Shown here piece after piece: positions 3,934 to 61,472 of a stretch of 64,000 bases of DNA. The notes under the pieces are model-generated. The model saw only the letters and a program-made list of their open reading frames with translations, did not search any database and was not told the DNA's origin. The position numbers and the translations under genes are program-made. The stretch's first letter is position 1. Every line of letters begins with the position of its first letter. Source of the stretch: Diplonema japonicum (Eukaryota > Protista > Euglenozoa: Diplonemea); the NCBI GenBank assembly GCA_964019335.1, contig OZ025709.1, positions 124,001 to 188,000 of the forward strand. The letters run 5' to 3'.

Positions 3934-4120
3934 CCTTCTCTCCTTCGGAGTACGTTGGGATGTAAAGCATAAAAATAAAATAAAATAAAATAAAAATAAG
4001 AAGAATAAAAAAAAATCTTTTTTTAAAAGAAAACCCCGAATAAACTTCGGTGTGCGGAGTGGGTGCTCACCGAAATCTAACAGAAAAAAAGAAAGAAAGA
4101 AAAGAACACTATGCTGGGGT

Positions 4121-4173
<53 letters not shown>

Positions 4174-4387
4174 AAAATGTCACCCTTTTCTTCCCCCAAT
4201 TTAGTATTTACTATTTTTTCCTTCTTTCTTACTTTCTTTTTTTTTTTTTTTTTCCTTCTCGTCATCGGAAAAAAAAAGAAAAAAAAAAAAAAACTGTTGA
4301 TATTCTTTCCTAGACAGCTTTTTTATTTTCCTTTTATTTTATAATTCCCCATTTTGAGAACTTCTTGCTATAGAAAAAAATTTTTTT

Positions 4388-4427
<40 letters not shown>

Positions 4428-4577
4428 CGACAATCCCACTTGAGGACAGCCTCTATGTAAAAAAAAAAAGAGATATAATACAACAAAAAAAAAAAACTAT
4501 TCTTGTTAAGGTATGCGTTTTTGCGCACCGGCCGGTGCTGCGCTTACGAAATATAAAAAAAGAATAATAAAAAAAAA

Positions 4578-4611
<34 letters not shown>

Positions 4612-4672
4612 CCCAGTTCAAATTGAGAAACGACAAATCACACTTTTTTTTTTTCCCCCCCACCTCTCTCAA

Positions 4673-5244
4673 TCACTTCCAAGGCCCCCATTTTTGCCTC
4701 ACCCCTTCATATTCCTGCCACCGTTGTGTCGGTTCACGGCTCCTATCCACCTTGTCCCCAAGAGGCATGACCCCAACTGAGGGGGTGATCCTGTAAATCT
4801 TGGCACCAAGACCTTCAACTGTGGCATCGAAGGTGGAGTTGAATGAACCAAGCGGCGTTTTTTCCGTCAGGTCCATTACATCAAAGAAGGAAGCAGTCGG
4901 AAGCCCCAGCGTTTTGAAGGACAGAGTGGACACAATTGTCCCGTTAAGGCAAGGCGGGTCGGCGACCCTAGGAAGCCCACACATAATGTTGAAAACGGAA
5001 ACGTAGCGGGAGGAAGACCCGTACGAGGCGGAGTTAGCGATCCAAACAATAGTGAAATTGTCGCGGAAGTGCTGCACAGGGTTGCGGATGTCCAAGTGAG
5101 CTTCGAGGAGGAAATCGTTCTAAAATAATAATAAATTTTTTTGTTTCCCCACACACATACATTCAACAGCCCCAATGTGTAATCACTCACACCGCACGCA
5201 AATTTCGAGTTCGGGTCACATGTTGCAGGCTGATGTGGGTATTT

Positions 5245-5275
<31 letters not shown>

Positions 5276-6265: not shown

Positions 6266-6333
6266 TTTTTTTTGTTTTTTTTTTTCTCTTCTCCTCCCCC
6301 CCCCCCCTACTTTGTTGTTGTCTTTTTTCTCTT

Positions 6334-6375
<42 letters not shown>

Positions 6376-6380
<5 letters not shown>

Positions 6381-6487
6381 ACTGGCCGTTGTTTGTACGT
6401 GCCGGGTAAAACCTGGAGAAGTTTTTGTCAACCCGAAACACGTTGCCAACGTTCCCCTTTTGTTTAGACAAGTAAAGACTCGTTCTT

Positions 6488-6489
<2 letters not shown>
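6376..6489. repeat. Short dispersed repeat (family D); internally deleted copy at 46319-46379
   Basis: GAGGAACTGGCCGTTGTTTG...TTTTGTTTAGACAAGT(T)AAAGACTCGTTCTTGC followed by an A-run at both loci. Imperfect internal inverted repeat 6378-6455. Confidence 0.65.
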
Positions 6490-6524
<35 letters not shown>

Positions 6525-6562
6525 TTCTGGTACAGGTTAGTAGTTATCGCTAGCGCTGCAAG

Positions 6563-6598
<36 letters not shown>

Positions 6599-6692
6599 TG
6601 AGATAAAAAAAAAAAGGAGGCTTCGTGTCTACCTGGGCCTTTTCTCTTCTTCTTTTTTTTTTTTTTTTTTTTTCCCCGGCTGTGTTCTTTAA

Positions 6693-8500
6693 CCATCTAT
6701 CAACGAGCGTCTATATATAGACGATTTGAAAAAAAATCTTTTACGCAAAGGGCTTTCAATGCAATACGGCCCGGCCCTTTCTTGCCGGCGGGGTCCTGCG
6801 CGGAAAATATGAAAAAAATAAACTAAATGCTGCCCTAACTTAACAAGAAAATGAAAAAATGAAAAAAAACGCCAGCCCAAATTTACCCTTAAAAATCACT
6901 TCAAAAAAAGGCGCCCGGAAAGAGGGCCGGAAGAGGACGTCATGAGTGATGGCAGCACTGATGGCTCATCCCTATTATGCAATTTTGATACAAACAGTGA
7001 TTCTGATACGAATTCGACCGATTCCTAGTCACAGCAGGGTGATTGGACGGCAAAGCCGGAGCAGTTGGAAGGCATCCGGTTTCGTGAAGATCGAAATCCT
7101 TGTGGACCCTGTTTTGACATCAAAGGCTCAATGCCATACCATATATTCTCCAAATGCTCGTCCCAAACGTTATTCGGGTCATAACTTGGAACAATGTGGC
7201 AAATGCGGCTAAAAAAGGTGTCTCCCTGGATCTCGATGCTGCTTCTCTGCATGCCTTCCTAGGTGTCCTTTTGTCGATGGACTTGGATATCAAGCCAGAT
7301 TATTCTGATTACTGGCACACTGGCTCCACGTCTCTCAACTACACCCCTGGGTACGCCAATGTCATGTCAAGAGACCGCTTTTTGACTATTCTGGGAAATC
7401 TGTGTTTCCACAGCGAAACAAACAAGCGTGCTGACTTCTACTTATCGCAAAGGCCTCCCGGAGATCATGGATGCCCCAAAGAAGCGAGGCCGCATGCCAA
7501 GGACGCGCATCCCGTGGGGACACCCAGTTCCACCAGCACGCGAGCATCCTTTGCACCACAACGTGGCATGACATCATGCCAGCGTGCTTTCTATCGACGT
7601 TGGATGTTCCGGTGAAGTCGAATTTGACGTGTCCGCCAAAAGAGAATGAAAGCCGGAAAGGACATCCCGCCCCCCACCAAGTGCATATTTACAACACCGC
7701 AATGGGCGGAACCGACGCTGGGTGATGCTGTGACAAAACACCATAAACGCTCCCTTATGACTTAAAAGTGGCCCCTAAAAGTATTTTTGTACTTGTTAGG
7801 TAAATCTCTGGCGAATGCTTGGCTTGTTTGGAAAGAAGCCTTGCCCCCCAACGCCCTGAGTACGAACGACAGTGGATTTACGCCTTTCAAAGAGGCAGTC
7901 ATCGAAGGGCTACTAGGGAGGCAGTCTAAACAACAGATAAAGTCAACTACAGAGCAGGCCGCCCCAATACCATGCCCCGAAACACAGAACGAGTGCTCTG
8001 AGACCCCAATGCGCCGTGACAGTACCTTCTGGGACCATTTCCCCGAAAAAGTAGTGCAACGTGCGGTGCAAGCATTGCAAGTCGAAAAGACCCCTATTTC
8101 AGTGTTCAGCCTGCTTGGTACAACTTTGCGTGACTCCGTGCTTCAAAGACTACCACCTTGCCGGGGATACCCCCCAGAAACCCCTCCCGGGGTCAAAAAA
8201 GAAGTCCCCCAGCCCTGGGGCACATACGAACCGCGTCAAGAAGGCCTTAAATAGCTTTTTATAGAATTTTACAGTCGGTTTTTTTTGACTTGTTTTTTGT
8301 ATCCCCTCTCGGGCACTTCAGGAACGATATTTTTGACAATGTTGTGGGGGTGGACCCTGCTGTGGGCACCCTCTCTCTAGAATTGGGACATCTGGAGGCA
8401 TTTCCGGGGGCATATAGCCCCGGCGTTGCGCTGGAATAGCTTTTTTTGAAGTTTTGAAAATTTACCCCCTGGTGGGCAAAAATGGTCCGTTGGTAGATGG
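6693..8500 (+). mobile_element. piggyBac-family DNA transposon, non-autonomous (decayed, internally deleted transposase), copy 1
   Basis: TTAA at 6689-6692 and 8501-8504; TIR CCATCTA(T/C)CAACG. Transposase fragments AFLGVLLSM..DYW..MSRDRFLTILGNLCF, YNTAMGGTD, KWPLKVFLYLL..NAWLVW and the C-terminal CxxC..CxxC..C..CF..YH domain, split by stops and frameshifts. Confidence 0.92.
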
Positions 8501-8585
8501 TTAAAAATAAAAAATAAAAATAAAATAAAAAAAACCCCCCCTTTCTTCAACGAAGGGGCGGTTCTCTTCTTTCTCCCCTCCAACA

Positions 8586-9386: not shown

Positions 9387-10874
9387 TTTTTTTTTTTTTT
9401 TTGGCCCTTTTTTTTTTTTTTTTTGGATTTTTCAAAAAAGTTCGAAGAAAAAAAAAAAGAAAAAAAAAAAACTCGATAAAAAAAAAATTCAGTGTGTGTG
9501 TGTGGGCATAGCAAAATGCCACATCCTCCACTTCACCCCCCCCCCCCCCCCCCCCCTCTCCCCCCACACACAATATCGGAAAAGCGAATAAAAAAATAAA
9601 GACTACAAAAAATTGTAAACATTGGGGAACTATTCATGTTCTTTCTTTTCCCTCCCCCCTTTTTTCTTTCCCTTTTTCACCTAACACGAGGTACTAAACT
9701 GGCCATATTGCACACATAATGAATGTCTTGTACCAAGGTGGGTCTTCCTCTGACCTACACAATGATTCAAAAAAAAAAAAAAAATTGCCTGGTGGGAAAA
9801 TGCAACATGAAACCTTTGTGAAGCATCGCCCCGAAGCCTCCCAAGCCCCCGTGGTCTGGTGAAGAGTAAATGGGGGAAGAAAAAAAATGATTTCTTTGTG
9901 TGTCTTTTTTTTTTTGTTGTTCGGCACTTAGTTGCATTAGGTAATATAAACCATTTTTTTTTTTTTTTTGAAAAAAAAGAAAAAAAAGGCCTCCAACCGA
10001 CAAAGGAGAGCAACACAAAAAAAAAAAAAAAAAAAAAAATTGAAGGAACAGAACAAGCAATTAAGAAGTTTGAAAATATCACAAAAAGAAAACTTTTTTA
10101 TTTCTTCTTCCCCGTGGTAAGCCAGTGATGACCGGTCTCAGGACGGGGAAGTGCAGCAAAAAGAACGCAACGACCTCTCTATATGTGGGTACCCTCGCGG
10201 TCCCTGAGACACCCACTAGTTCTCAAGTTATGTGGATTCCAAGCCAGCACTTGCCCTCTGAGACATTCTCTCGTTATTGCAGCTTCTCCTTCATTCCACT
10301 GGTATCTGATGTATTCTTTCTTTTTTTTTTCTTTTCTTTTCTTTTTTTTTTTCGTTATTTCTTCAGCTGACCTACCTTGGGTATGTCACTGGTATGCATG
10401 GGGAGTTCATTACCCATTTCTTTTTTGAGTGAAAGAGGGGGAGGGGAAAAGGGGAGGGGGAGGTAACAACCACAAACGTTTACAGTTTCTAAACTTTAAC
10501 AGTTTTTCTTTCTTTCTTTTTTTATTTTTATTTTTTTATTATTTATAAATATAAATATAATTGTTCACTACCCATTTAAAAAAAAAAAGAGGAAATTACT
10601 GTAAATCCAGGGGAAAAAAAAAATCAATCATTGTGCCCCAAGCCCATCGCCACCCGGCTGCCACATCAGCTCAAGTGCAGGGTGGCCTCAGTTTCAGCTG
10701 AAAAAAAGCTTGGCCATACACAAAAAAAAAGTTTTTTTTGGTGGATTACAGTACCCCCCTTTTTTTTTTCCTTATCGGGCTTTTATTCGTTTTTTTTTTC
10801 TTCCTCCTTTTTTTTTTTTTTTTTCTTCCTCCTTCAGTGTCGGTGGCGCACTGCACATAGAAAGAAAAAAAAAA

Positions 10875-10918
10875 GAGACATTTAAGGGTACCTGCGGTAT
10901 GTGACAGGACGCCTGAAG
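10875..10918 (-). repeat. Family A hairpin-oligo(T) dispersed repeat; other copies start at 42045, 45987, 47315 (variant) and 49477
   Basis: Plus strand (A)n-GAGACATTTAAGGGTACCTGCGGTATGTG(G/A)CAGGACGC recurs five times, with a CCTGC/GCAGG stem. Confidence 0.85.
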
Positions 10919-11241
10919 AAAAGAAAAGGAGAAAGAGGAGCCGCTATCTATAGAAAAGAAATATAGAGATAAAAAAAAAGGAGGCCAGTTGGTCAGCGCC
11001 CAGTTGAAAGAAATGTTTTTCCTTTTTTTTGCTTTTTTTTTTAAAGTTAGTATTCGCCTCTTAACGCAAGGGAGGCAGAATACGTTAGCATGAACACAAT
11101 ATAGAAAATGTGATGATTATATATAAATAAAAAAAAATTTCTTTTTTTTGTTAACCCCTAAAATTACATAAAAAAAGAGAAAACATACAATAAAAAAAAA
11201 GGGGGGGAAGAAACTTTTTTTTTTCTTCTTTTTTCCCCGCC

Positions 11242-23376: not shown

Positions 23377-23448
23377 TTTTTTCTTTTTTTTTTTAAATTG
23401 AGGGAACGGGGGGGGGGACCTGCCCAAACGTGTTTTTTTTTTTTTTAA

Positions 23449-25256: not shown

Positions 25257-25554
25257 TTAATTCATTTTGGGAGGGGAACAGTTTTCTTGACCTGGTCCCG
25301 TCAAAGGTTTTCATAAATCCCAAAAAAAAAAAAAACTCAAAGATCCCCCCTGTACTTTAGTTTCGAAAATGTTCGAAAATTCCCTTGATCACAAGAGTAC
25401 AACTGCACGTACCCTCACAAGAATATGCTGATGCCGGCTGATGCCACGAAGAAATGCACGTTGTGTAAATAACAAAAGAAACAGGGGGGGGGGGGGGGGG
25501 GGGAGATTCGAAAGGAAAGAGATAACACCACTATTCGGTGAAGGGGGGAAAAGA

Positions 25555-39944: not shown

Positions 39945-42520
39945 CCCTTGTGTCCGGTGGTATTAAGGAAATTGCCTCTTTTTTTGGAGGCGAATTCAAG
40001 TCGAAGGTGGGACAACTCCATGCCTGTCTGCACGGGGTAGGGCCTATGATCACGTGGCGAAAATAGAGCAAAGCACAGGAAGACCGGTTTTCTTAAGAAT
40101 GAATAAAAAAAAAACTGGAGGAAGAGAAAGAAGAAACAAAAGAAATCGATAAAGTTTCAGTGTTGCAGGGGGCACTCACTCGGCTTTGGAATACGACGCT
40201 TCTCCTGTCTTGATTTCACCCACAAGAAAAAAAGGGGAAAAAAAAAAAGAAAAAAGAGACATTTAGAAAAAAAAAGGGGGGGGGACAAAAAAGAATGAAA
40301 AGGGAGGAGGAAAGAGAGTTTGTATGTGTTTCTTCTCCGTCTTTTCTTTTTTCTTTTTCTTTTTCTCATCTTTTTTTTTTTTTTTTTTGTTCCATAGGCA
40401 GGTTTTCGTCCGCGTTTCTTTTTTTTTTTCTTTCATTTTTCTCGCAATTTTCGATTGTTGCAAAAAAGAGAAAAAAAAAAGGGGGGGGCGGAGCTTAACA
40501 AAAGCGTCTTTATGCAAAACAGCACAAAGAGGGGGGAGGAATGGGGAGCCTTAAGAAAGAGAAAAGGAGAAAGAAGAATAGAGAATTTTACAATGACGGG
40601 GGGAGAGTGCCTTGAGAGATCGACAAAAACCCATCAAAGGAAAAAGAAAGAAAAGAGAAAGAAAAACAGAAACACATACATATGAATGAATTTTTTTCTT
40701 TTTTTTAACTCAGACGGCGGTAGTAATCTCTTGGCGTCCTTAAATAAAAAACGGGGGGGGGGGAGAATCATGTGACTAAGTTACAAAAGAAAATAAATGT
40801 AACACAAGCCATGTAATTAAAATAACTCTTAACCCCCGAGACCAAGAACGTTTTGGAGTCTGATCCACACACTTCAACGGTAGAGGGTAAGAGGGATGTA
40901 CTGTTTGTTTTTTTAAATTTTGCTTTTTTTTTTTTTCCGTTCCTCTCGCACATCAAATGGGGAGAAAGGGGGGGGGGGGGGGGGGGAGGGGGTAAAATAG
41001 CAGATTTTGTCCTAAATGAATAAGATTTCTTTTTTAAAACTCTTTCTTTCTTGCAAAGAAAAACAAAAAAAAAACGGTCTTTTGTCAAATTCGGTATAAC
41101 AAGCAGAGCCTGCAAAGAAGGAAGAAAAAAAAATAAAAAAGAAATTTAAAAAAAAAAAAAAAAAGGAGAACAGGGGAACAGAGTTAAATTTCCAATCCTC
41201 TCCCCCCTCCTTTTTTTTCTTTCCTTCTTCTTTTTTTTATTTATTATACACTGTTGTTTGCTGTTGTTGTTGATTATTGTAAAAAAAAGAAGAAAAAAAA
41301 GATCATTTTTGAGTTTAATAATTATCTCAGTTACAGTAAAAAAAAGAGAAAAAAAGAAAAGAAAAAATAACTATTGATTTATGAAAAATAAAATGGACTT
41401 TATTTCCCGCGGCTGATAACCTGTCCCAGGGGGGGGAGGAGCCAAGGAAAAAGAGTAAAGTCCACTTTAATTCATGAATACGTAATTTTATTTATTTTCT
41501 GGTTCCCGATGGCCTCCCTAACCCCCTCCAAAGCCAGGATGTCCAGGATTTGATATAACATTAGGGTTGCTTGCACTGCTCGTCCACGCCTTCAGCATGG
41601 CAGTCAACCTACCCAAACAGCTCTCTACTTAGAGGGCTGCGAGCGATGCTCCTAGCAGCCGGTGTACCGCAGAATGGAGACAGGCACGTGACCGACCATG
41701 GCACAAATACAGCAAAAGATTGTTGATTTTCTGGCCTCTTTTCTCTGACTGAAGGGGGGGGGGGGAAAAAAGTACTTTATTTTTTTTTTCCCCTAGGGAA
41801 AATTTGGAAAACCTTATTTTTCCCGGGCTCTAGCCAAAATCTCCTTAGAGGGAATCCAGAAACTAAATATCACCATTCCTCTTCTTTTTTTTTCCCCCCC
41901 CCTCCACCCGCCCCGGGCCTCCGAGGCAGGCCAATTCAAAATAAAAAAATACTTAAGATAAAGCAGGGCAAGTGTAGGTGGCGCCCTGCATCGGGTGTAC
42001 CGCGAAGATCGCTCAAATCGCTCTATGGGGGGGGGAAAAAAAAAGAGACATTTAAGGGTACCTGCGGTATGTGGCAGGACGCCTGACAATAAACTAAACT
42101 AAGTACAAAAACTAATCTAACAAAACGCTGCTAGTCTCACCCCTAGATAAAAAGGTTTCCTCGCCTCCCCCCTCTTTTTTTTTTTTGTTCCCTTCCATTT
42201 TCTTTTTTCCTTTGTTCCTATCATTCAAATGATTTAATTAATAAACTTATAATGTGTGCCGGGCAAGGACTTACCTTCTCCCCCAACAAGTTTTTATCAC
42301 ATTATTTTTTTTTTTTTTTTTTCTCTCTCTCTCACTTCTATGCGTTCATTCCAATGATGATCAAATCCAAATTCGATGCCTCCAGAGGAGGCTTCTCACT
42401 AACGTTACGCTGATCTATAAGAACAGCACCTGTGCCTCCGAATTCCGGGATAATGCGCAGAGGTAGGTTACAACAAAAAAAGAAAAAAAAAAAAGAAAAA
42501 AAAAAAAGAGGACCCTCCAA

Positions 42521-44494
42521 CTAAGCTGAGAAATCGCTTGCCCTACGGGACGAAGGGTAGTTAGATGACCTCATGACACGGGTATCCCTCACAACTTGAT
42601 TCTTGTGCCAAAACACCACACCAGCCACTGCTGCACCGAGCACCACTGCCACAGCAACCACAACAAGTACAATTGTAAGCACTTTGCTGTCATCATCATC
42701 TCCGCTTCCGCTCTCGATTTGACTGTCGCTGCCGTCAGGTGCAGGTGAGGCGTTTTCATCCCAAAGCTGGATCACAGACATCCCCACGTCGGCTGTATAA
42801 GCCAGATTCCCTACGACGGTCATACCCCTCACAGATACGGAGCTGGTGTACCCGTCAAGGCGCTGCATCTTCAAAGGGTTCTGCACATCTATCAACTGCA
42901 CACCCTCACTGCCAGAAACTACCACTTTGTCTCCTGCCATCTTCACACTTTCGATCGTGCCACCCAATACCAGGGAACCAAGGATGGTGGGTTTTGATGG
43001 TGTGCTCACATCCACCGCGTGCAGGCTGCCTTTGACATCCGTCACATAAGCACGTGTTGCATTCGCCGTCACTGCCCGAGCATCGGCAGGAATCTTCACG
43101 CTGCCAATGAGAGTTGGTGTGGACTGGGCTACGTTCAGCAAGGTCAGGCCTTCCGCGTTCACAGCGTAGGCCGTGTCCTCCAACACAAAAATCCCATTGA
43201 CATGTGAAAGGTCGTACTTACCAAGACGGGTGATGTCCTCAGGGTCGGTCACATTGAGCATATGGAAGCCCTCAGAATGGTCGAATCCCAAGTAGGCTGT
43301 CGTCCCTACCACGTGCATGGAGAGGACGCAGTGTGACTGTGTAGGATCCGCGCGGTACGACCCTAGAACCTTTAATTTCCACGGCCTCGGCGCAGTGTAC
43401 ACGTGGAAGAACGGGCACGAGGCCACGTAACTGGTGATTCCTTCGACCTGCACGGCAGTCGCTTCGATCTTGATAGCTTTATCCACCCTCCACTTCTTGA
43501 TGTTGAATAGCTGCATCAGACCACGGCCAAGGATATACGCGTAATCACCAGAAACAGACAAGGCCTTTGCATCGCCTGGTTGGTCGAACTTCCCTAAATA
43601 ACCCGGGTTCGCGTCTCTCACGTCCAGCATCTTGAAACCAACACCAGCAAGGTAAGCTGCACCCCTCACCACCTGCACGTGAGGAGTGCCCTCATTGCTG
43701 TAGGAGTCAAGGAGTTTAGGGGTTGTAGTGCTCACATCGACGATCTTGAGGCCATCCATGTCGGAGACGTAAGCATTTCCGCCCGATACAATAACCCCAC
43801 CGGCACCGCTTCCCGTGAAGTTTGCCTTGAGGGAGGGGGACGAAGGGTCCGACACGTCGAAGATGAGGAGGCCTTCCGACGAGGTGGTCACGTAGGCAGA
43901 GGTGCCGGACACATAGAGACCGCCAACGGTGGTTGCTCCCGTGTTTACAGAACCACGAAGAACTGGTTCAGAAGGGTTGCTAAAGTCGATGATCTGGAGC
44001 TTCTTTTCGTTGTCGTTGCTCAAAATGTAGACGATAGCCCTGATGACGAAGGGTTTCCCTGTACTGCCGCCTGTGTAGGTGCCGAGGAGCTTGGGGGTAG
44101 TGGCATCAGTCGCATCGATAGCGAGGATCTCCCCTTTTGTGGACCTTATGTATGCGGTGTCCCCAAACACGTGCACTGCCGTGCAGGGCTCTGGGTACCG
44201 CCCCACAACGGTACCTTGTTTCACAAGCACCAGTCCACCTTTTCCGTCCGCCACGAAGACTGTGCCCCACACTTCGTCGACGCCACGAGCGTCCTTCCCC
44301 GTTTCTATCTCGTAGATCTTCTCCATCTCACTAAATTTCCTCAGGTCAAGTATGACAAGCCCGGAAACCCCAGCAGCGAAATAGGCCGTGTCTCTTGTCA
44401 CCCTCACGTCTGATATGTGGTCAATAGCCTCAGTTTTCCTCACCACTAATAGCTCTGCAGTTGCTGCCACACATAGTAAAGAAAGTAACGCCAT
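42521..44494 (-). CDS. LVIVD-repeat type I membrane protein (paralog 1)
   Basis: Signal peptide, repeated V.G..AYV....GL.I.DVS.PS.P units and a C-terminal TM helix. Confidence 0.85.
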   Translation of the reverse strand: MALLSLLCVAATAELLVVRKTEAIDHISDVRVTRDTAYFAAGVSGLVILDLRKFSEMEKIYEIETGKDARGVDEVWGTVFVADGKGGLVLVKQGTVVGRYPEPCTAVHVFGDTAYIRSTKGEILAIDATDATTPKLLGTYTGGSTGKPFVIRAIVYILSNDNEKKLQIIDFSNPSEPVLRGSVNTGATTVGGLYVSGTSAYVTTSSEGLLIFDVSDPSSPSLKANFTGSGAGGVIVSGGNAYVSDMDGLKIVDVSTTTPKLLDSYSNEGTPHVQVVRGAAYLAGVGFKMLDVRDANPGYLGKFDQPGDAKALSVSGDYAYILGRGLMQLFNIKKWRVDKAIKIEATAVQVEGITSYVASCPFFHVYTAPRPWKLKVLGSYRADPTQSHCVLSMHVVGTTAYLGFDHSEGFHMLNVTDPEDITRLGKYDLSHVNGIFVLEDTAYAVNAEGLTLLNVAQSTPTLIGSVKIPADARAVTANATRAYVTDVKGSLHAVDVSTPSKPTILGSLVLGGTIESVKMAGDKVVVSGSEGVQLIDVQNPLKMQRLDGYTSSVSVRGMTVVGNLAYTADVGMSVIQLWDENASPAPDGSDSQIESGSGDDDDSKVLTIVLVVVAVAVVLGAAVAGVVFWHKNQVVRDTRVMRSSNYPSSRRASDFSA

Positions 44495-45885: not shown

Positions 45886-45917
<32 letters not shown>

Positions 45918-46932
45918 CCCCTTGAAATAATGATGCTCATTAAGCGGACAACACAGCCAAAAAAAAAAAAAAAAAAAAAAAAAAGAGAGACATTTAAGGG
46001 TACCTGCGGTATGTGGCAGGACGCCTTAAAAAAAAGAATCAGAAGACATGGGGGGGGGGGGGGGGGGAAGCATTTCCTTTTTTTCTTTTGTATTATTGTT
46101 TTGGACCGGAAGACCGGCAATTCGCCAAGCTTATGCCAGGTTTCCTCACTACCCGCGGAAGGATAAGGGCCCCCCTAGGAAAAGATGCGTTTCAAAAAAA
46201 AGAAAAAAAAAAGAAAATTACATCGTAAGAAAGCACTATCGAAGAATAAGAAGAAGCTCGTTGATAAGGCTGGTTTTTGAGCTTGTTCTCCGTCTCCTAA
46301 GAGGTCACATCACCACAAGAGGAACTGGCCGTTGTTTGGACGTGCCTTTTGTTTAGACAAGTTAAAGACTCGTTCTTGCAAAAAAAAAAAAAAAAAAGCG
46401 GAAATTACATAGTGTGCAATTGGCAATTGGAGACTTTGCTAAGAATCCAGAAAAGAACGTACCCCCTCCAAGCTTTGTCTCTCTCAAAGAAAATACGAAA
46501 AAAAAAAAAGAAAGAAAAAGAAAATAAAAACATCAGTAAGGATGCAGGGGGGGAGGGGAACGAAGAACGGAAACATGAAAGAAGAAACAAAAAAAAAAGA
46601 AATACCCTACCGTTTGACCAGCAAAGACGCAATAAAACGGGCCAAGCCCGCAGCAGGAAGTCACGTAACGTATGCCTCTTTTTTTTTTTTGCAGTTCTTT
46701 TTTTTTTTTATTTTACCAACAAACAGAAACATAATTTTTTTTTTTTTACTGGGAAAACAATAAACAGTAGTCCCCAGGACCCCTAGAAAAGGTGTTAAAG
46801 AAAATTGCCCCGATATTCGAAAGGGAAAAATTACTGGAGCCCCGCAATTTTTCTTTTTTTTTTTTTCCCTTTCGATGGTTTTTTTTTCTTTCTTTCTCCC
46901 CTCCTTTGTTTTTAACAGTAAAAGAAAAAGGT

Positions 46933-46979
<47 letters not shown>

Positions 46980-47197
46980 TAATTGTGACTTGGGAAGGAG
47001 TGAGTGTCACCATCGGTCATTACTCTAGGTTTTGAAATACAGGAAAGCCAGCGACGTCCTTTACGGGCTGCACACTTTGACCCAGCGGTGTGGCAGTGTT
47101 TACTGCGGGGCCCTGAGGCTAGAGGGCGTTAACCCCTATGCAGCAACACTGGCCCCGACATTGAATAGAAGAAAAAATCGAAAGCAGCAGCATCAGC

Positions 47198-47239
<42 letters not shown>

Positions 47240-47686
47240 ATTTTCAGTTTTCGCAGAAATGCATGGGATAGAAAAAGTGATAAGGAACTAAAAAAAAAAA
47301 AAAAAAAAAAAAAAGAGACTATTTAAGGGTGCCTGCAGTATGTGGCAGGGCGCCCTGCACAAGTATCGTCTACTTGATTACAGGGGGCGCGCCTCGGCCT
47401 AGTTGTAGCTTCTTCTGCGTTCCGCGTCGTGTCCTTAATGCATGCGGTGTGCAACTCAACCCCAGCCATGGTGCCCCTGGTAACCAAGATTCTGAACCCG
47501 TGCAGTTTGCTGCCTGTTCGTCACCCTGAGCATCTGCGATACGTTCTTCCACTCGGGCGCTACCGGTGATGACCGACGTGGAGGTCAACAGCGAACAACA
47601 CATCTGATGTGCTTCTTTATATTTCCATATTTCTGTGTTATCCCCACTACCAATAAAGTACAGAAACTGTAGCTTTAGAATCGTTG

Positions 47687-47719
<33 letters not shown>

Positions 47720-48188
47720 AAAACTTTTTTTTTTTATTATTATTATTTTTATTATTATTATTTTACTTCTTCGGAAAAATTACTTACACTAAAGTCTTCA
47801 GAAAATGCCGAAGCAACAGAATGAGAAGAGCGACTGGCAGGAAAGGCAATCCTGATAGTGGCAGTGCCAGAGTCAACAAAGGGAGGGACATGTATTGCAA
47901 CCCCTCTCTTGTTGTACCCCTTGTCACCTCTTTTGCCTGTTGTAGTGAAGTATTTTCAGAGAGTCGTGGAAAATAAAACCACTTACCTGTCACCATGAAA
48001 GGACTTTTACCGCCTCTCCGGGCCCTCGGTGGAACGGGTTTGCGGTACAGAGTCATATACTTGTTGGTAGCAAGCAGCTATTTCTTTCTTTTTCTTTTTT
48101 TTTTTTCTTCTCCACAATCCTGTGTTTTTTTAATAAGAAAACAACCCGAGTAACAAGGGGTACTATATAGTGACAAAATTTTATACTC

Positions 48189-48220
<32 letters not shown>

Positions 48221-49299
48221 CACCCCCGATTGGTCTGAGAAGAGTAAACTATGCGCTTAGCCTGTGGTACCTTCACAGGTATCTCAACCATCCACAATTC
48301 GGAGTGGTTCGCCACCGTTAAAAGGGGGTAGGAATCTCTTGCCTCTTTTCTTCTCTCGTTTCTTTCCCCCCCCCCTTTTTTTTCTCTTTTTTTTTTTTTC
48401 TTCTTGCTATTTCATTTCATTTCATTGTGTGGTTTAACTCTATGTAACCAAAGGAACCATACATTTAATATGAAAGACGAAGCAGAAAAAACTCAAATTA
48501 ACATGCAAACTCCCAGAGCGAAAGCCGCATGCCCTAAAAAGGGAGGGGGTATGGTCAGTACTAGGTATCTCTCAGTTTCGAATTAATCTTGCGACTCCTC
48601 CAAGTGCTGATCTCTTCAGGCAAGAAGCACCCTTCATTGGCTCCCACTAGCGTCCCAGTGGGTTTGGAGAGTACTTTTCCCGACCACAAAAAAATAATAC
48701 CGGATTTGTATTTTATTCTGTTCAGTATTAATAATGTGCTGTATAATGCTGTTTAATTATGTGCCCCTTTTTTTTCGGAACCCCGACTTTGGACTTTATA
48801 CGGAACAATACAAAAAAAAAGTTATTTTCGTTTTCCCACTTATTTACCATCTCAAACAGTTCCAGGCCTAATTGTCGCTCCATGGCTTCCTGACTACTCA
48901 TTGCAGAGGTGGACCGAGGCAGAAGGAGGAGCTGGGACGCGGAAATGGACCCCAACAAGAGCACCTCGAAGCCGGTCGCTACGCAAGCGATGTGGGGTAT
49001 TTTGTTTTCTTGGATCTTTTTTTTTTTGTAAAATCTTATGTTCTCTTTTCCCGAAATTTTCTTTTTTTGCCCAAGTTTGGGACTTTTTTACATTATAAAT
49101 ACAAATCCGGTACGGGGAAAAAAAAAAAAAAAAAAAAAAACGAGACCAAGGTCAAAGTGCAATAAAAGGTTTTTTTCTTCTTTTTTATATATTATTTCGA
49201 CAAAAAAAAGAGGAAAAAAAAAGGGGGGGGGACGCTTCTGATAAACGAAACGGAGTTGAGGAGAATCCCCATTCAGAAAAAAAAAAAAAAAAAAAAAAA

Positions 49300-49429
49300 T
49301 CGATAAAGTTTCAGTGTGCATGGGGGTGCTCACTGTTCAGGTAGAAAGTCACACTAATCGACCACCGTTCTGCGGGTGCTGTCTGGTACCTGCTTGTGGC
49401 TGTGTGTCGCGATGAGATGGACGGCATCT
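49300..49429 (-). repeat. Family B hairpin-oligo(T) dispersed repeat; long copy at 61248-61373, short variants at 4037-4074 and 40146-40180, degenerate copy at ~9472
   Basis: Plus strand (A)n-TCGATAAAGTTTCAGTGTGCATGGGGGTGCTCACTG... is shared, with a CAGTG/CACTG stem. Confidence 0.8.
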
Positions 49430-49743
49430 GGGCGAGAAAGGGGGGCTGGAAGAAAAAAAAAGGAAAAAAAAAAAAAGAGACATTTAAGGGTACCTGCGGT
49501 ATGCGGCAGGACGCTTGAAGAGTCTCAACTTATCTCTTGGTCGAACCTTTTTGCTGTGGTGTGGCCTTCGGTGGCCCCTCGCTCAACCTTCTCGGTACCT
49601 TAGGTATAAAACCCTCAACCGGGTTGGTAAGGACACAATAGTTGTACAGTTGTTTCTCAAGGATATGGCGGGTTGCCGGGGAGTAGCCCCTTATGGAGCC
49701 GTAAATAGTAACCCAACATGCGTAGGGGAGGGAGGGGGGGGGA

Positions 49744-51825
49744 CTAAACGAGAACCTTTGTCAAAACATCTTCCCTCGTTGGTTGCATTAAGGTTTCTGC
49801 CAGCGTGTCTCCCGTTGGCCTACTATAATTTTTCCGCCAGCACCACACACCAAATGCAGCCATGACCAACAACACGGCAGCAGCGATAAGCACAATGACC
49901 AGAGTAGTGTGAGTGTTGCTGCCGCTCCCACTGGGGCTCCGAGGGTACTCTGGGGGTGTAGATCCCACGGTGTCGTTAATATATTCGATTCTAATAAGAG
50001 ACATCCCCGCATCCGCAACATATACCATGTCACCTACGCACGAAATACCACGAGCTTCGCCGCTTAATCTTGCTATGCTAAAGTAGTCGATGAAAATCGG
50101 TGACGACGGCGAGCTGATGTCCACCAGCTCCAGGCCGTATTGGAAGGAGATGACTGCGGAGTCCCCAATCAAATCAAGATCGTTGGAGCCCCCCCACAGT
50201 TCGCCTACACCTGCAGCGCTTGTCGTTCCCACCTTTAGAGTTCCGATTGTAACTGGGTGTCGAGGATTGCTCGTGTCCACCACGTACAAACCCTTGTTCC
50301 CCGTGACGTAAACAGTGTGGAGGCGTATTGCTATCGCCTCCGCCCTGCCATCAATATTCACGCTGCTGATAAACATTGGGGTTGAAGGCGTTTCAACATC
50401 AAGCAACACCAGCCCGTCGAAAAATCCTGCAACGTAAGCTATCTTACCGGACACTATCACATCGCTGGCGTATAGATCGGGGAAAGTGCTGATAAGAGAG
50501 ATTTTGGAGGGGTTTCTTATATCGAGTAGTTGCAGCCCGTCTGAGTTCGAACCCACGTAGGCGATGGTTCCTGATACGTGAACGGAGTGCGCGCAGTGCA
50601 CGAGGCCGCCTGGTTCGAATTTTCCGAGAATTGTTGGTCGATGCGGCACGCTCACGTTGAAGGCGTAGAAATAGGGACACGATGCCACGTATGCTATGCT
50701 GCCCACAACCTGAACCGCGTTGCTTTTCCCGGTTGAGCCCAGTATCGTTGCGACCTCGTCGTAGGAACCCACTACAGTCGGGGACACGGGGTTTGAGATG
50801 TCAATCACTTGCAATGTTTTGCTTCCTACAAGGTACGCGTAGTTTCCAGAGACAGCCACATCTCTTGCACCACACGGCTGGTTGAAATCTTCCAGCAGTA
50901 CCGGCGCCGATGAATTAGACACATCCAGCATTTGTATACCCGCCTTGGCCACGTACGCCGTCGTTCCCTCCACGCGGATACGTGTGTCGATTTTTCGTTT
51001 CGCGGAGGGTCTAGTGCTGAGGAGAATTGGTGAGTCTGGAGTGCTCACGTTGACCATCGTAAGGCCCAGATAATCTGCTATGTAAGCAGTGTTGTTCGCT
51101 ATGTAAACCCCTCCGTCAACACTGTCGGTGAAAGTTGTTATAAACGAAGGCGACAACGGGTCTTCCACACCGAAGATTAGAAGGCCTTCTCCTGTTGCGG
51201 CGTACGCCGTGGTACCTGAGACGAACAGCTCCCCCGCAAAGGTCACGTTGGTCTCGACAGAGCCCAGGGGGAGCGGAGTATATGGGTCGCTGAAGTCAAA
51301 AATACGAAAGGTCAGCTTAACGCTACCGGTTAAGCAGTACAAAATCGTGCCCGCAACGAAAAAATTCCGAACGGAACCTAGCTTCTCGTGGCTGTCGTAG
51401 AGCACCTCGTACACAAACGTGTCCACGAGGTCGGAGGTCATGTTCACGGCAAGAATCGTATTCCGTGTAGTTCTGGCGTAGGTAATACCCTCAGACACTT
51501 GCACTGATTCGCAATACTCTGGACACCACCCATCTACATACCCAGCAGTTATTCGAAGTACACCGGACTCTCTGTCCGCCACGAAGATGGTGTCCCCTAC
51601 CACGTCAATGCCACTTGCATAGCCTGTCCATACCCGGTATAGCTCCTGCGCGTTGCCGGGTTCCTTTACATCGATTGCTACAAGCCCCGAGGTGCCTGCT
51701 GCAACATATGCTATCCCATTCACCACCTTCAGGTCTCTGATCGTGTCGATCATGTATAATTCCCCCACTTGGATCCATGTTGTTGCCCCAACGGCCACTG
51801 CATAACAGAGAAAAAGCAGCGCCAT
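49744..51825 (-). CDS. LVIVD-repeat type I membrane protein (paralog 2)
   Basis: Signal peptide MALLFLCYAVAVGA, LVIVD repeats and a C-terminal TM helix. Confidence 0.85.
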   Translation of the reverse strand: MALLFLCYAVAVGATTWIQVGELYMIDTIRDLKVVNGIAYVAAGTSGLVAIDVKEPGNAQELYRVWTGYASGIDVVGDTIFVADRESGVLRITAGYVDGWCPEYCESVQVSEGITYARTTRNTILAVNMTSDLVDTFVYEVLYDSHEKLGSVRNFFVAGTILYCLTGSVKLTFRIFDFSDPYTPLPLGSVETNVTFAGELFVSGTTAYAATGEGLLIFGVEDPLSPSFITTFTDSVDGGVYIANNTAYIADYLGLTMVNVSTPDSPILLSTRPSAKRKIDTRIRVEGTTAYVAKAGIQMLDVSNSSAPVLLEDFNQPCGARDVAVSGNYAYLVGSKTLQVIDISNPVSPTVVGSYDEVATILGSTGKSNAVQVVGSIAYVASCPYFYAFNVSVPHRPTILGKFEPGGLVHCAHSVHVSGTIAYVGSNSDGLQLLDIRNPSKISLISTFPDLYASDVIVSGKIAYVAGFFDGLVLLDVETPSTPMFISSVNIDGRAEAIAIRLHTVYVTGNKGLYVVDTSNPRHPVTIGTLKVGTTSAAGVGELWGGSNDLDLIGDSAVISFQYGLELVDISSPSSPIFIDYFSIARLSGEARGISCVGDMVYVADAGMSLIRIEYINDTVGSTPPEYPRSPSGSGSNTHTTLVIVLIAAAVLLVMAAFGVWCWRKNYSRPTGDTLAETLMQPTREDVLTKVLV

Positions 51826-51938
51826 GTTACGGGGGGTAGGGGGGGAGGGACCTCTCCTGCAAGACGGCGTGAGGAGGGGGGGAAGAAGAAAAAATAGTTT
51901 TTGCACAATACACTTTTTTTTTTTTTTTTTTTTTTTTT

Positions 51939-55203: not shown

Positions 55204-55301
55204 TTCTTTTTTTTTTTTCTTCTTCTTTTTTTTCCCCCTCCCTCTTTTTTCTGCGTGTATTATTAAGAATGGAAGAGAAAAGAAAAACGGGTGTTGAAAT
55301 A

Positions 55302-55337
<36 letters not shown>

Positions 55338-55441
55338 GAGAGAGAGAGAAGTTGGCGATTTTTATGCACATCCGTTCGGAAGAACGATGGCTCTTTTTTA
55401 TTTGTCTTTTTTTTTTTAATTTATTTTTTTTTTTTTTTTTT

Positions 55442-57346: not shown

Positions 57347-57418
57347 TTTTCTTTTTTTTTTTTTAAATTTTCTCACCCCCCCCTTTTTTTTTGTAAAGTT
57401 GTAAATTAAATTTAATTT

Positions 57419-57460
<42 letters not shown>

Positions 57461-57480
57461 TAGACATGGGGGGGGAAAAA

Positions 57481-58864
57481 TACGGCACTCAGGTTGGAAT
57501 GAGCTTCTAACCTGTGCGGCGCCACCTCTTAGAGATAAAATAAACTCAAATCGGCATGCAGTGGAGGGACATCATATTGGCTCCGCGTAATAGCATGGGG
57601 GAAAAGGAGATAGAAGCAGGGTTTTCTTTTTATTTTGGTTTTATTTTGTTCCTTGAAAACCATAAAAGGGAAAAAAGGGGGAGTTGGAATCGCAGTGCTA
57701 AAGGCCCGATAAGGGCTTTCTTCTCAGAAAGCACAGGAAAAGCAACAAAGAAACACAACAATACACTTTGGTTTTTTTCTTCTTCTTTTTTTCTCTGCCA
57801 GCTTTTTTTTTTTTTTTTCTTGGAAAAACTCTCGTCGGAGTGTATAAAAGTCGTTTCACGAAGAGTTTAAGAATCATCGTTGAAGAAAAAGAACAAGAAA
57901 AGAAAAACACAGAAGGGGAGGGGGGGGGGGGGGGGGGGGGGGGGTCCTCCTGGTCGTTGTCTTTCTTCATACAGCACATTCCTTCTACTTTTTCATTGTA
58001 TCATTTTTTTCTTGGGCAAAAGAAGAAAAAGTTAAAGAGAATGTGCAATCGCGTCAAGACAGGAGAGGAAGTAAAACAAGAAAGAGAGGGAAGCCAGCAT
58101 TCTGAGAAATGGGAGAAACAATAAAAAGAATTGTGACCTAATTTTATTGGGTATGTCACAGTGGACACCCGTGTTAAGCTTCAGAATAAAGAATAACAAA
58201 TGTGACCTTTTTTTGCATCGTTGTCAGCAAACAAACAGAAAACTAGAAAAGATCTACGAAAATAATAAAATAAGAAAAGAAATGGGGCTTTGGTTGCAAC
58301 ACTATTTGGCGTTAAGTGTGCAGCGTAAGAAAACAAAATAAAATAGGAAGCTCTTGTCTATCATAGCCATGCATTGCAGGTTACAAGACGCTTATAGGAA
58401 GAAATAAGAAAAATCCATTAATTCTACCTTGAACCCCCTTTTTTATTACAGTGGTTTCTCCTCCCCTTTTGTGTTGCTTCTTCTTCATCCCACGATGGAG
58501 ACCATCCATTTTACGGAAGAGGAAAGGAGAGAAGAGAAAGAATGAAGGGAGACAACATCATACACACAGTCAATAATATATAGTTAGGAGTGCAACATCA
58601 ACTGGGGGTGCTTACACCTGCCTCTCGGAGGGGAGAGTCTTGCTTGTCTCTCCCATGGCCCAATCGTTGGCACCGTTGACACCATCACCACCGTACTTGT
58701 TCTTCCACCACCACACACCAGCTGCCGCAATGATTGCCAGCACCAGTGCCACGCCCAGCACGATGAGCACAATGGTCAAGGTCTTCTTGTCGCCCCCATT
58801 GCCGCCAGCAGGAGACAGCGTGGGGGAAGTTGTTGCAGGAACAGAGGTGCCTGGCGCAGGGGTC
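57481..58864. repeat. Segmental tandem duplication unit (LVIVD 3' end + downstream spacer); partner at 62761-64000
   Basis: Long colinear near-identity at ~5.1-5.3 kb offset, e.g. 58551-58640 vs 63683-63772. Confidence 0.9.
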
Positions 58865-60915
58865 GCAGGAGAGGCTGTGCGAGGTGCTTCTGTTGCTGGT
58901 GCAGTGGTACGGGGCGCTGGTGTTCTCGGTGAGGGTGTGGGTGGTGCTGGTGTGGAGGGAGCAGGGGTTGCAGGTGCAGGGGTACGCGGGGCGGGTGTCG
59001 AAGGAGCAGGGGTGGGTGGGGCAGGGGTTGCAGGAGCAGGGGTGGGTGGTGCAGGGGTCGCAGGAGCAGGAGTGGGTGGTGCAGGGGTCATTGGAGCCAC
59101 AGTGGGCTCCGCAGTGGGAGGTGCAAGGGTCCCGTTCCACACCTCAATCACAGACATCCCCACCTCCGCCATGTATGCCAGATTCCCCATCACAGCGATG
59201 CCATTGAACGCTGACTTGCTGTACCCGTCGATGAGGGTGGGTGCCGAAGGGTTGCTCACATCAACCAGCTGCAATCCCTCGCTCCCAGAGATGAGTGCAA
59301 TCTCCCCCACCACCTTCACCCCCGTCGCTTGGGGCGTCGCGAAATTCCCGACGATGGACGGCGCCGATGGGGTGCTCACATCGACTATGGTCAGGCCTGT
59401 ACGACCCGCAACATAAATAGTGGTCCCGCTCCCTGTCACCCCTTGTGAGGTGCCGGTTCTCACGTTGCTGATGAGCATGGGGGCAGAAGGAGTTCCCACA
59501 TCGATCAGGGTCAAGCCCCTGCTGCTTACCACATAGGCCGTCGTCCCTGACACAAGCACCCCGTTGCAGCGTGAAAGGTCGTACTTGCCCACACGCTTGA
59601 TGTTGGAAGGGCTGCTGACGTCGAGCACTTCAAAACCATCCGAGTGCGTCCCCACATAGGCCACAGTCCCAATCACATCCATAGAGAGGGCACAGTATTG
59701 ATACTTCCCATTGGTTTCGTACGTCCCCAGAACCCTCGGCTGGTGAGGGGTGCTCACATCGAAGACGAAGAAGTACCGGCAGGAGGCCACGTACACAGTG
59801 CTCCCAACCACCTGCACGGCCTTGGCCCATGTGGCTTCTCCATAGGAGCCCACCACTGTCGGGGCAAGTGGGTTGCTGATGTCCACCACTCGCAAGACTG
59901 TCTTGTCACCGACAATGTATGCAAAGTCCCCAGAAACAGCAACGCCCCTTGTAAAACCACCAGGAGGCTTGAACTCTCCCAGCAGCGTGGGGTTGGAAGT
60001 GGTCCTCACGTCCAGCACCTCGATCCCGTTGCTGGCAACGTAAGCCACGCCGCCCTCAACCTGCACCAGACGGTTCTGCGTTGCAACGCGCTCGCCGAGG
60101 AGCAACGGGGGGTCACTGCTCACATCCACAATCGAAAAGCCTCTTTTACTGCTCCCAACGCCGTTGCAGGCCAGGTACGCCGTGTGGTTCGCAACGTAGA
60201 TATCCATCGTGAGGACGTGCTTGTACTCCAACCTGAAGGAAGGGGACGAGGGGTCCGCCACATCGAAGATCAGGAAGCCGACCCCCGTAGCCAGGTAGGC
60301 GGTGTCGTCGTCGACAAAGATGTTCCCTATATGGTAAGTCAAGTTGGTGCTCAGAGAACCGAGCAGGACAGGGGAAGAAGGGTTGCTGAAGTCGATGATG
60401 TTGAGGTCACGGGTAGCATTGGGTGACGACCCGTCAGGTGCAGTGGTGTAGACTGTGGTGTCCACAACGAAGAGGCTTTCAGCGAAGCTCTCATTGTACT
60501 TGCCAAGGAGCTCGGGGGTTGTGGGGTCGGCCACATCGATTGCAAAGACATCACCCAGATTGGACCGCAGGTAGGCAACACCCCCGGACACCTGCACCCC
60601 GATGCAAGGCTCCGAGTACTGCCCCACCACAGACCCCTTCTGTATGATCTGAAGCCCAGATCCACGATCCGCCACGTAAACAACGTCCCCTGCCACGTCA
60701 ACACCTCTTGCCCCTCCACCGGTCTCCACTCTCCACAGCTCCTTCGTTTCATCGGGTTTCTTCACATCCACTGCAACCAGACCAGAGGCCCCAGCAGCGG
60801 TATAAGCAGTTCCTCCCACAACCTTCAAGCCATAAATGACGTCTACCGCCTTTGTCTGCCCCAACAGTGATAGTTCTGCTGCCACAGACACATAGAGAAG
60901 TGAAAGAAGCACCAT
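58612..60915 (-). CDS. LVIVD-repeat type I membrane protein with a PxTPA mucin-like stalk (paralog 3)
   Basis: Signal peptide, LVIVD repeats, (P-x-T-P-A)n stalk at ~58850-59120 and a TM helix. Confidence 0.88.
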   Translation of the reverse strand: MVLLSLLYVSVAAELSLLGQTKAVDVIYGLKVVGGTAYTAAGASGLVAVDVKKPDETKELWRVETGGGARGVDVAGDVVYVADRGSGLQIIQKGSVVGQYSEPCIGVQVSGGVAYLRSNLGDVFAIDVADPTTPELLGKYNESFAESLFVVDTTVYTTAPDGSSPNATRDLNIIDFSNPSSPVLLGSLSTNLTYHIGNIFVDDDTAYLATGVGFLIFDVADPSSPSFRLEYKHVLTMDIYVANHTAYLACNGVGSSKRGFSIVDVSSDPPLLLGERVATQNRLVQVEGGVAYVASNGIEVLDVRTTSNPTLLGEFKPPGGFTRGVAVSGDFAYIVGDKTVLRVVDISNPLAPTVVGSYGEATWAKAVQVVGSTVYVASCRYFFVFDVSTPHQPRVLGTYETNGKYQYCALSMDVIGTVAYVGTHSDGFEVLDVSSPSNIKRVGKYDLSRCNGVLVSGTTAYVVSSRGLTLIDVGTPSAPMLISNVRTGTSQGVTGSGTTIYVAGRTGLTIVDVSTPSAPSIVGNFATPQATGVKVVGEIALISGSEGLQLVDVSNPSAPTLIDGYSKSAFNGIAVMGNLAYMAEVGMSVIEVWNGTLAPPTAEPTVAPMTPAPPTPAPATPAPPTPAPATPAPPTPAPSTPAPRTPAPATPAPSTPAPPTPSPRTPAPRTTAPATEAPRTASPATPAPGTSVPATTSPTLSPAGGNGGDKKTLTIVLIVLGVALVLAIIAAAGVWWWKNKYGGDGVNGANDWAMGETSKTLPSERQV

Positions 60916-61472
60916 ATTGGTTCTGAAAGGTGTTTTATTTATTTTTTATTTTCTTGTCTGTTGAATGCAAAACATGAAAAAAAAGGAAGCGGAAGGAGAG
61001 GGAGAAAGATAGGTTGGTAGGTAGAAGTCGAAAACAAGTCTTGGGGGAAAACAAAAAAGAAAAAAAAAAAAAAGAGTTCCATGTAGCTGCATGCAGATTG
61101 GCATTTCCGTCTTGTTGGCCACTACTTCTGCATGTACTTCCTTCTGTTGCACCTCCTTCGCCACACTGCATTCCCATAGTGCGTGTCGCAGCAAAAAAAA
61201 AAAAAAAAACTCGCCATAGTGCGTGTCGCAGAAAAAAAAAAAAAAAACTCGATAAAGTTTCAGTGTGCATGGGGGTGCTCACTGTTCAGGAAGTCACACT
61301 AATCGGCCACCGTACTGCGGTTGCTGTTTGGTGCCTGCGGTGGATGTTTGTCGCGATGAGATGATCGGCATCTAAAAAAAGAGAAAGAAAATACGGCGCT
61401 CAGGTTGGAATGAGCTTCTAACCTGTGCGGCGCCACCTCTTAGAGATAAAATAAACTCAAATTGGCATGCAT

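Follow-up and report, generated by a model that had tools for sequence, protein, structure and literature searches.

Short T-tailed repeats in a Diplonema japonicum gene cluster as probable 3' ends of two related LINEs, with a likely SINE-like companion

A 64-kb stretch of the Diplonema japonicum genome (64,000 nt; GenBank assembly GCA_964019335.1, contig OZ025709.1, positions 124,001-188,000 of the forward strand; hereafter the window) contains short intergenic repeats that end, on one strand, in a hairpin, a spacer and a T-run. What are these repeats, and how did the T-run come to stand at their 3' end? The minus strand carries nearly every recognisable gene of the window, which is a gene cluster of the euglenozoan type with a few GT-AG introns and with plentiful A- and T-runs in its intergenic DNA. 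For D. papillatum, genes in unidirectional clusters, trans-splicing of a 39-nt spliced-leader (SL) exon, 5-methylcytosine and RNA interference (RNAi) machinery are on record, and its genome paper calls rigorous identification of transposable elements still pending (PMC10161547). The initial annotation distinguished three families, A, B and C, which it called unrelated, and offered three readings: 5'-truncated non-LTR retroelements with T on the coding strand, Helitron- or Helentron-like termini, or domesticated RNA-processing signals. Here we report that A and B continue into the C-termini of reverse transcriptase (RT) proteins and are almost certainly derived from long interspersed nuclear elements (LINEs).

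Repeat copies and their parent proteins

Copies were located by self-BLAST and profile searches on both strands, and the reversed window, used as a control, gave nothing below E 0.8. Family A has five copies and family B four, all on the minus strand, and family C has two, also on the minus strand (Table 1); the fifth A copy (47315-47356) forms the tail of element S, described below, and a weak B remnant lies at 9469-9501 (E 0.039). In the profile searches no plus-strand copy of A, B or C was found except for the self-complementary C hairpin. The sense-only orientation noted in the initial annotation was thus borne out, as was the abundance of A- and T-runs on both strands (68 sense-T and 65 sense-A non-coding runs of at least 10 nt). 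Its counts of five A, four to five B and two C copies were also recovered, with the reservations that the A copy at 47315 belongs to a different element and that the C copies are paralogous.

Table 1 Repeat features of the window. Positions are those of the window.
Feature	Position	Strand	Description
Family B tip, diverged	4031..4075 (start approximate)	-	A-U to G-C change once in stem, E 8e-9
Family A tip	10875..10916	-	42 nt, hairpin and spacer, T10 tail, pyrimidine-rich upstream flank
Family B tip	40146..40180	-	Degenerate hairpin, broken T-rich tail, E 4e-11
Family A tip	42045..42086	-	42 nt, T9 tail, fold z -2.9
Family A tip	45985..46025	-	41 nt, T26 tail, T8 upstream
Element S	47315..47686	-	372 nt, SINE-like; head 47651-47686, non-coding body, A-like hairpin tail
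Family B long copy	49300..49439	-	140 nt; final ~28 codons of the ORF2 of LINE family 2, with a single frameshift
Family A long copy	49477..49700	-	C-terminal ~50 codons of LINE family 1 ORF2, 5'-truncated
Internal LINE ORF2 fragment	61078..61194	-	Zinc-knuckle region; between two T-runs
Family B long copy	61248..61373	-	126 nt; last 25 codons of LINE family 2 ORF2, 3' UTR hairpin, T16
Family C	57477..57564	-	Hairpin within duplicated 3' flank of LVIVD-repeat gene
Family C paralogue	61388..61475	-	Deletion-fused to LVIVD gene fragment; B copy directly follows

The long A copy contains the end of an open reading frame (ORF) with its stop codon at 49532-49530, a 53-nt 3' untranslated region (UTR) with the hairpin and spacer, and then T13. 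Its frame is 90% identical to residues 372-420, the last 49, of P0001, a 420-aa ORF from a D. japonicum transcript, and stops at the same position. P0001 is in turn 47% identical over 406 aa, up to the last residue, to P0010, a complete 1328-aa protein of D. ambulator and the only longer relative of P0001 found. Residues 1-189 of P0010 match Exo_endo_phos (E 2e-4; 21.4 bits, just short of the Pfam cut-off of 24.5) and the protein matches RVT_1 (E 2e-22), with human L1 ORF2p and R2 as its best solved relatives; no RNase H was matched at E up to 1, this domain appearing in distant homologues only. Among the homologues (35 at E up to 1e-10) many are diplonemid and have the same layout, and PF03372 is precomputed for many of them. 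In a 17-row alignment the motifs GDxN, YADD and CX2C...HX4C are conserved where the rows extend that far (GDxN in 14 of the 17, the remaining three stopping short of it), and no PD-(D/E)xK motif of the C-terminal restriction-like endonuclease that marks CRE/SLACS and Dualen elements was seen by eye. The full-length relative of P0001 thus carries an apurinic/apyrimidinic (AP) endonuclease, an RT and a zinc knuckle. A different contig holds an independent copy, P0002, whose truncation point lies further upstream; its frame continues past the A terminus and into a run of Phe codons corresponding to the T-run. The LINE match of A came from the representative-protein search only; the Pfam search of 116 intergenic frames gave no RT.

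The predicted structure of P0001 had no Foldseek match at E 0.001. Weak matches were to R2/L1 in residues 23-231 (Z ~6) and to winged-helix folds in residues 249-366 (Z ~5), a conserved C-terminal domain without a Pfam family, and this winged-helix-like domain of the LINE group is, judging from the model, a candidate nucleic-acid binder. In the Atlas P0010 led to generic RVT_1 clusters only, and P0001 to no usable match.

Both long B copies end in the same way. The copy at 49300, matched to P0047 by tblastn, has its stop at 49351-49349, followed by the hairpin, a 12-nt spacer and T23, and the frame at 61371-61297 is identical to the C-terminus of P0047 at 20 of 25 positions. P0047, from D. japonicum, is 868 aa long and belongs to an RT cluster; PF00078 is carried by its cluster (P0014) and by that of P0056 (P0029). 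When 2078 stop-anchored peptides of the window were compared with 54 distinct C-termini, the long B copies ranked first (61248, score 66) and second (49300, score 58), the next scoring 15; the best unrelated score was 30. A loose end upstream of the B copy (17 nt in two contigs of run X1, 10 nt in one contig of run X7) extends the ORF, reading by hand L-H-V-M-F against L-Q-A-M-F in P0047, and therefore the B copy of the window is 5'-truncated. A fixed unit of 130 nt was ruled out for the long B copies, which start 7-10 nt apart within the parent ORF; forms with internal deletions exist among the run contigs. The internal LINE fragment is 56% identical to P0016 (E 5e-10; nothing at E 0.02 in the reversed window). 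Next to it, at 61190-61250 on the minus strand, an 18-nt stretch of the fragment is duplicated around final B bases and T17. This could be a tandem duplication, or else a B insertion of extreme truncation whose target duplication starts in the T-run.

The protein records closest to the repeats come from D. papillatum and from the transcriptomes of D. japonicum and D. ambulator. A and B are two branches of a single LINE group, so that the description of unrelated families has to be given up for them. Judged by the sequences of RT and endonuclease and by the pattern of truncation, their parents are LINEs of the type with an AP endonuclease (APE-type), of which the window itself holds C-termini only. 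The first of the three readings offered initially is hence supported for A and B, both of which run upstream on the same strand into C-termini of proteins with AP endonuclease and RT (APE-RT).

Extension of the longest copies, proposed as the way to tell RT from Rep-helicase parents, gave RT proteins for both families. Helentron ends are similar in layout to the repeats, and DNA elements of the Helitron/Helentron type, with a subterminal hairpin and insertion into T-runs, would find some backing in the Helitron-like ORFs of D. papillatum (PMC10161547) and in a further family, E, whose copy at 6376-6489 is bordered by T-runs and can form a long fold-back. Against such elements, A and B continue directly into RT-protein C-termini, the 116 intergenic frames gave no Rep or helicase match in Pfam, and the SL-like head of element S points to an RNA intermediate. 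For A and B this explanation is refuted, and overall we consider it barely credible.

Hairpins in family A scored better than shuffled sequences in all three copies folded out of five (z -2.4 to -2.9), and those of two of the three B tips folded did so as well (z -3.1), the exception being the one at 40146 (z -0.2); the C hairpin is marginal (z -1.85). The spacer to the T-run is 10 nt in A (counted from the extended stem), 12 nt in B and 9 nt in C. The fixed end of all five A/S copies bears T9 to T26, including those with a mixed upstream flank, and two B copies have broken T-rich tails only. The hairpin-spacer-T layout claimed for all three families was found in A and B, with the 40146 fold, the two broken tails and the marginal C hairpin as departures. 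In an unbiased scan of the minus strand, nine pairs of T-runs with a common upstream 14-mer were found among 265 runs, of which seven came from A/B, one was paralogous and one was probably due to chance; the plus strand gave one such pair among 270 runs. Copies of A and B measure 35-224 nt, with the LINE stop 50-53 nt ahead of the tail. A fixed T end with variable truncation, as described initially, is thus present in A and B. The truncation points are nevertheless clustered (three of the five A copies are 41-42 nt long and start at the foot of the hairpin), and the differing starts of C result from a deletion in one paralogue.

Element S

Element S is flanked by T-runs on both sides and begins with a 36-nt head that resembles a spliced leader. 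An SL-like 20-mer in it is unique in the window (0.02 expected) and shares 16 of 17 positions with the prokinetoplastid SL motif in the excerpt of PMC7859406. No diplonemid SL sequence turned up in a literature search, which returned the prokinetoplastid one only. From the 39-nt exon length and the known form of euglenozoan SLs, we take the exon to end at 47651 and its first 3 nt to be missing. Loss of the first bases would fit an RT that halts at a hypermethylated cap.

The body is very abundant, matching 3126 contigs in X1 and 873 in a second run. At 47648, only 3 nt away from the junction, one variant is common to 22 contigs of X1 and 20 of X7, which extend at best 31 and 18 letters, respectively, to their nearer end; these contigs cross the junction, and the SL-like head is therefore joined to the body in other copies of S too. 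Its transitions are mostly of the CpG type (7 of 12 C>T and 9 of 11 G>A among those listed, together 16 of 23), and deletions are many. The tail aligns with that of family A. No protein parent was found among 464 candidates of 162-2000 aa, which is weak evidence, or by tblastn with 97 LINE proteins; one frame is open for 106 codons with a stop 55 nt ahead of the tail. No Rfam family matched the window at the gathering threshold, and at E up to 1 only A/T-run artefacts appeared in 45900-49800. Rfam thus gave no tRNA, 5S or 7SL RNA head of the kind that brings an RNA polymerase III promoter; the head is SL-like.

Element S is thus short, non-coding and high-copy and has a LINE-related 3' tail, traits that define a short interspersed nuclear element (SINE). 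Its SL-like head points to an RNA intermediate, and S is likely to be an SL-headed SINE and likely a SINE-like passenger of LINE family 1. The RNA of S would have received the spliced leader at its 5' end by trans-splicing, or from a master copy derived from an SL gene, and its A-like tail would be recognised by the family 1 enzyme. An SL RNA gene was considered for S and rejected, as a T-tract is absent at +114 and there is no clear SL-RNA fold. Upstream of the A tip that ends at 42086, the minus-strand stretch 42087-42115 looks by eye like a degenerate 3' half of a spliced leader, possibly by chance.

Priming of insertion and the origin of the T-run

LINE insertion is usually taught as the pairing of a poly(A) tail with the nicked, T-rich strand. 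Insertion primed in this way would leave A on the sense strand, where A and B have T: ORF, stop, hairpin, spacer and T-run are all on the strand that is sense for the host cluster. The A-tail of L1-type and ingi-type LINEs is accordingly lacking from both families, whose T-runs are on the ORF strand. Given a LINE parentage, we consider priming by oligo(U) likely, with the RNA predicted to end in oligo(U). The whole scheme, in which two related APE-RT LINEs left A and B as 5'-truncated copies, with the LINE protein binding the hairpin and the U-run priming on a nicked A-strand, is in our judgement probable. LINE RNA would arise within the polycistronic transcripts of the host, so that sense copies alone would serve as sources. 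The U-run would be transcribed from the T-run that follows the source copy in the genome and would not stem from a poly(A) tail. The LINE protein would bind the hairpin as a "stringent" recognition signal and nick the A-strand of a genomic T-run, and target-primed reverse transcription would start on the U-run. Frequent halting of reverse transcription past the hairpin would leave tips of 41-45 nt between T-runs. The sense-only orientation might come from strand-biased nicking or from loss of antisense copies, for example via RNAi. Stem-loops are carried by the stringent 3' ends of LINEs and SINEs (PMC3747384), and in RTE retroposons the tail base is the first target base (PMC6007223).

The 401 bases that hold A and B matched 143-2583 contigs per run in four of four runs, and the summed depth in X1 is ~400,000, a sum that is no copy number, against 182 for the exact-window contig. 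Deep contig cover of the long A copy extends up to 49640. Nineteen X1 contigs meet a plus-strand A-run immediately after 49519, and in several the same happens after the B hairpin; short tips made up of hairpin and spacer and set between T-runs are therefore common.

The abundance of T-runs matters for a second explanation, in which the same LINEs are tailless: the transcript would stop at the spacer, and the element would enter an existing T-run picked by the endonuclease, within it or at its 5' edge, T being target only. T-runs are very common in the window, and 7 of 11 copies have a T-rich upstream flank (at least 60% T over the last 15 nt; 50% is reached by 20% of non-coding 15-mers). Elements related to ingi in trypanosomatids also have an upstream T-rich target motif (PMC2323293). 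Where the upstream flank is mixed (copies ending at 42086, 49700 and 49439), T9-T23 nonetheless stands right at the fixed end, and tail and target base are coupled in RTE retroposons (PMC6007223), both of which argue against a tailless RNA. We judge this explanation rather unlikely.

The tips may also have been domesticated as SIDER-like signals of RNA processing or stability, with selection accounting for the hairpin-only size and the sense orientation. Most A copies are exactly hairpin and spacer, every copy is sense and intergenic, and T-runs can act as polypyrimidine tracts in trans-splicing. Yet the parents are transcribed and have long intact ORFs, S shows the CpG-type decay and many deletions of decaying repeats, and the copies nest in one another's T-runs within repeat-rich gaps. 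Domestication is consequently improbable in our view.

Several observations weigh against oligo(U) priming and the recognition of a common hairpin. Covariation in the hairpin amounts to one pair in four rows and is not above shuffles (136/500). Target-site duplications (TSDs), whose tabulation the initial annotation had proposed, were uninformative in 11 copies, since the best matches were pure T-runs, absent, or low-complexity stretches of up to 8 nt, and tail and target are thus indistinguishable by this test. All ten LINE-related pieces, the internal fragment included, are in the sense of the host genes, which speaks for the scheme and has a probability of ~0.001 if they are independent and both strands are equally open, but this count comes from one window with one cluster strand, so that transcription, replication direction and selection are inseparable in it. 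The last 19 alignable bases of S are ~25-fold shallower than its body, the body is joined to an A-like end in one other contig per run among those listed, and many S copies may end differently. Of 49 loci of distant relatives in metagenomes, 16 reach the C-terminal region and none has hairpin, spacer and T-run, most contigs stopping at or ahead of the element end; four loci of one family (L012, L017, L022 and L023) share a 3' terminus followed by an A-run. The T-tail is therefore not group-wide, and the sequences suggest that it is lineage-specific.

With oligo(U) priming retained as the preferred mechanism, a wider picture can be drawn only tentatively, and we rate it at somewhat less than even: autonomous LINEs of diplonemids would prime on oligo(U), ride polycistronic transcription, insert strand-specifically into T-runs of the polypyrimidine type and mobilise a novel sort of SINE, headed by the spliced leader in place of an RNA polymerase III transcript. 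T-tailed APE-RT LINEs and an SL-headed SINE are probably new. A literature search found no phrase match for T-tailed LINEs or SINEs, which is no evidence of absence as the usual bracketed spelling is unmatchable, and for SL-headed SINEs it returned none, only papers on L1Tc. Oligo(U)-primed LINEs, if true, would be the class postulated in a 2013 review for the poly(T) SINEs of plants (PMC3747384). Since ORF-bearing LINE ends joined directly to T-runs and full-length proteins are now on record, U-primed insertion is testable in vitro. An SL-headed SINE, if true, would need no RNA polymerase III promoter and would give genomes with polycistronic trans-splicing a route to breed short repeats of their own. 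Insertions into sense T-runs may also lengthen or shift trans-splicing signals.

Other features of the window and comparison with known systems

Family C did not hold up as an independent mobile family. Its copies sit in a segment duplicated together with LVIVD-repeat genes and are therefore not independent insertions; the hairpin has been lost from a third paralogue (62761-62810). An older LINE end is one possibility for C, which had no protein match by tblastn with the 97 LINE proteins. A tiny element with terminal inverted repeats and an 8-bp duplication was considered for the C hairpin and set aside: the "empty" paralogue is equally explained by a deletion between short repeats, and a C-like sequence recurs at 62531-62561. 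Behind C, a 310-nt insert within a T-run (62416-62727, minus strand) ends in a hairpin, a 12-nt spacer and a T-run, and the paralogous segment keeps its tip only (57459-57475). The insert is probably another T-tailed family; the same tblastn search gave no match for it.

Family E, which the initial annotation did not list, is on the minus strand and has a second copy at 46317-46379 with an internal deletion and both ends retained. The fold-back of its long copy has z -3.2, no parent was found with the 97 LINE proteins, and E is the best candidate in the window for a Helentron-like element or a miniature inverted-repeat transposable element. The 1.4-kb intergenic stretch 47730-49200 (minus strand) ends in (TAA)n and then an A-run, much as a further LINE remnant would if its tail were of the conventional kind, and had neither a Pfam nor a tblastn match. 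A piggyBac-like element of 1826 nt, with a DDE_Tnp_1_7 match and a broken ORF, is present at 6689-8514 and 23435-25260; the two copies are 99.9% identical and in opposite orientations, a recent DNA transposon without strand bias here. The LVIVD-repeat gene family is expanded (42521-44494, 49744-51906, 58612-60915 and 63745-64000) with duplicated 3' flanks, and the gaps between its genes are where most retroposon pieces cluster; inspection by eye suggests a membrane anchor in the encoded proteins. A gene for a ubiquitin-leucine-rich-repeat protein holds a 75-nt tandem array, encoding the leucine-rich repeats, at 25484-26308.

Among euglenozoan retroposons, ingi/RIME, L1Tc/NARTc and SIDER resemble the diplonemid elements in being APE-RT retroposons that have short derivatives and live in a genome with polycistronic transcription and trans-splicing (PMC12278014, PMC2323293), and the trypanosomatid elements have a T-rich target sequence as well (PMC2323293). 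They are described as having RNase H, TSDs of 11-19 bp, a signature of 77-79 nt at the 5' end and a tail that is poly(A) or A-rich (PMC12278014, PMC2323293), whereas P0010 has no RNase H match, the tail of the diplonemid LINEs is T and no TSD was seen. The 3' end of SIDERs is an A-rich stretch, and the excerpted text does not mention their orientation (PMC2323293). CRE, SLACS and CZAR are likewise non-LTR elements tied to the spliced-leader sequence, with a restriction-like endonuclease, insertion into SL RNA genes and a poly(A) end (PMC12278014); element S, in contrast, is dispersed and flanked by T-runs, and its tail resembles that of the APE-type family A. A spliced leader fixed in DNA also marks reverse-transcribed RNA in the SL-tagged retrogenes of dinoflagellates (PMC5585692, PMC6050394), which are protein-coding copies, whereas S is one short, high-copy, non-coding family with a LINE-like tail.

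Retroposons with a poly(T) 3' end are known from p-SINE and other grass SINEs (PMC3747384, PMC5585668), where 26 of 61 families end in this way (PMC5585668), and the 2013 review describes the partner LINEs of poly(T)-ended SINEs as unidentified (PMC3747384). The grass SINEs have tRNA heads; here the T-tailed sequences are LINE ends, and the head of S is SL-like. The RTE LINEs and the Au-like SINEs of plants share with the diplonemid system an APE-RT LINE, a 3' hairpin common to LINE and SINE, T-rich tails and insertion near T-stretches (PMC6007223). RTE LINEs end in (GTT)n (PMC6007223), and the diplonemid copies differ from the RTE/Au-SINE pair in being without a clear TSD. By analogy, A and B may work like RTE/Au-SINE and other stringent LINE-SINE pairs.

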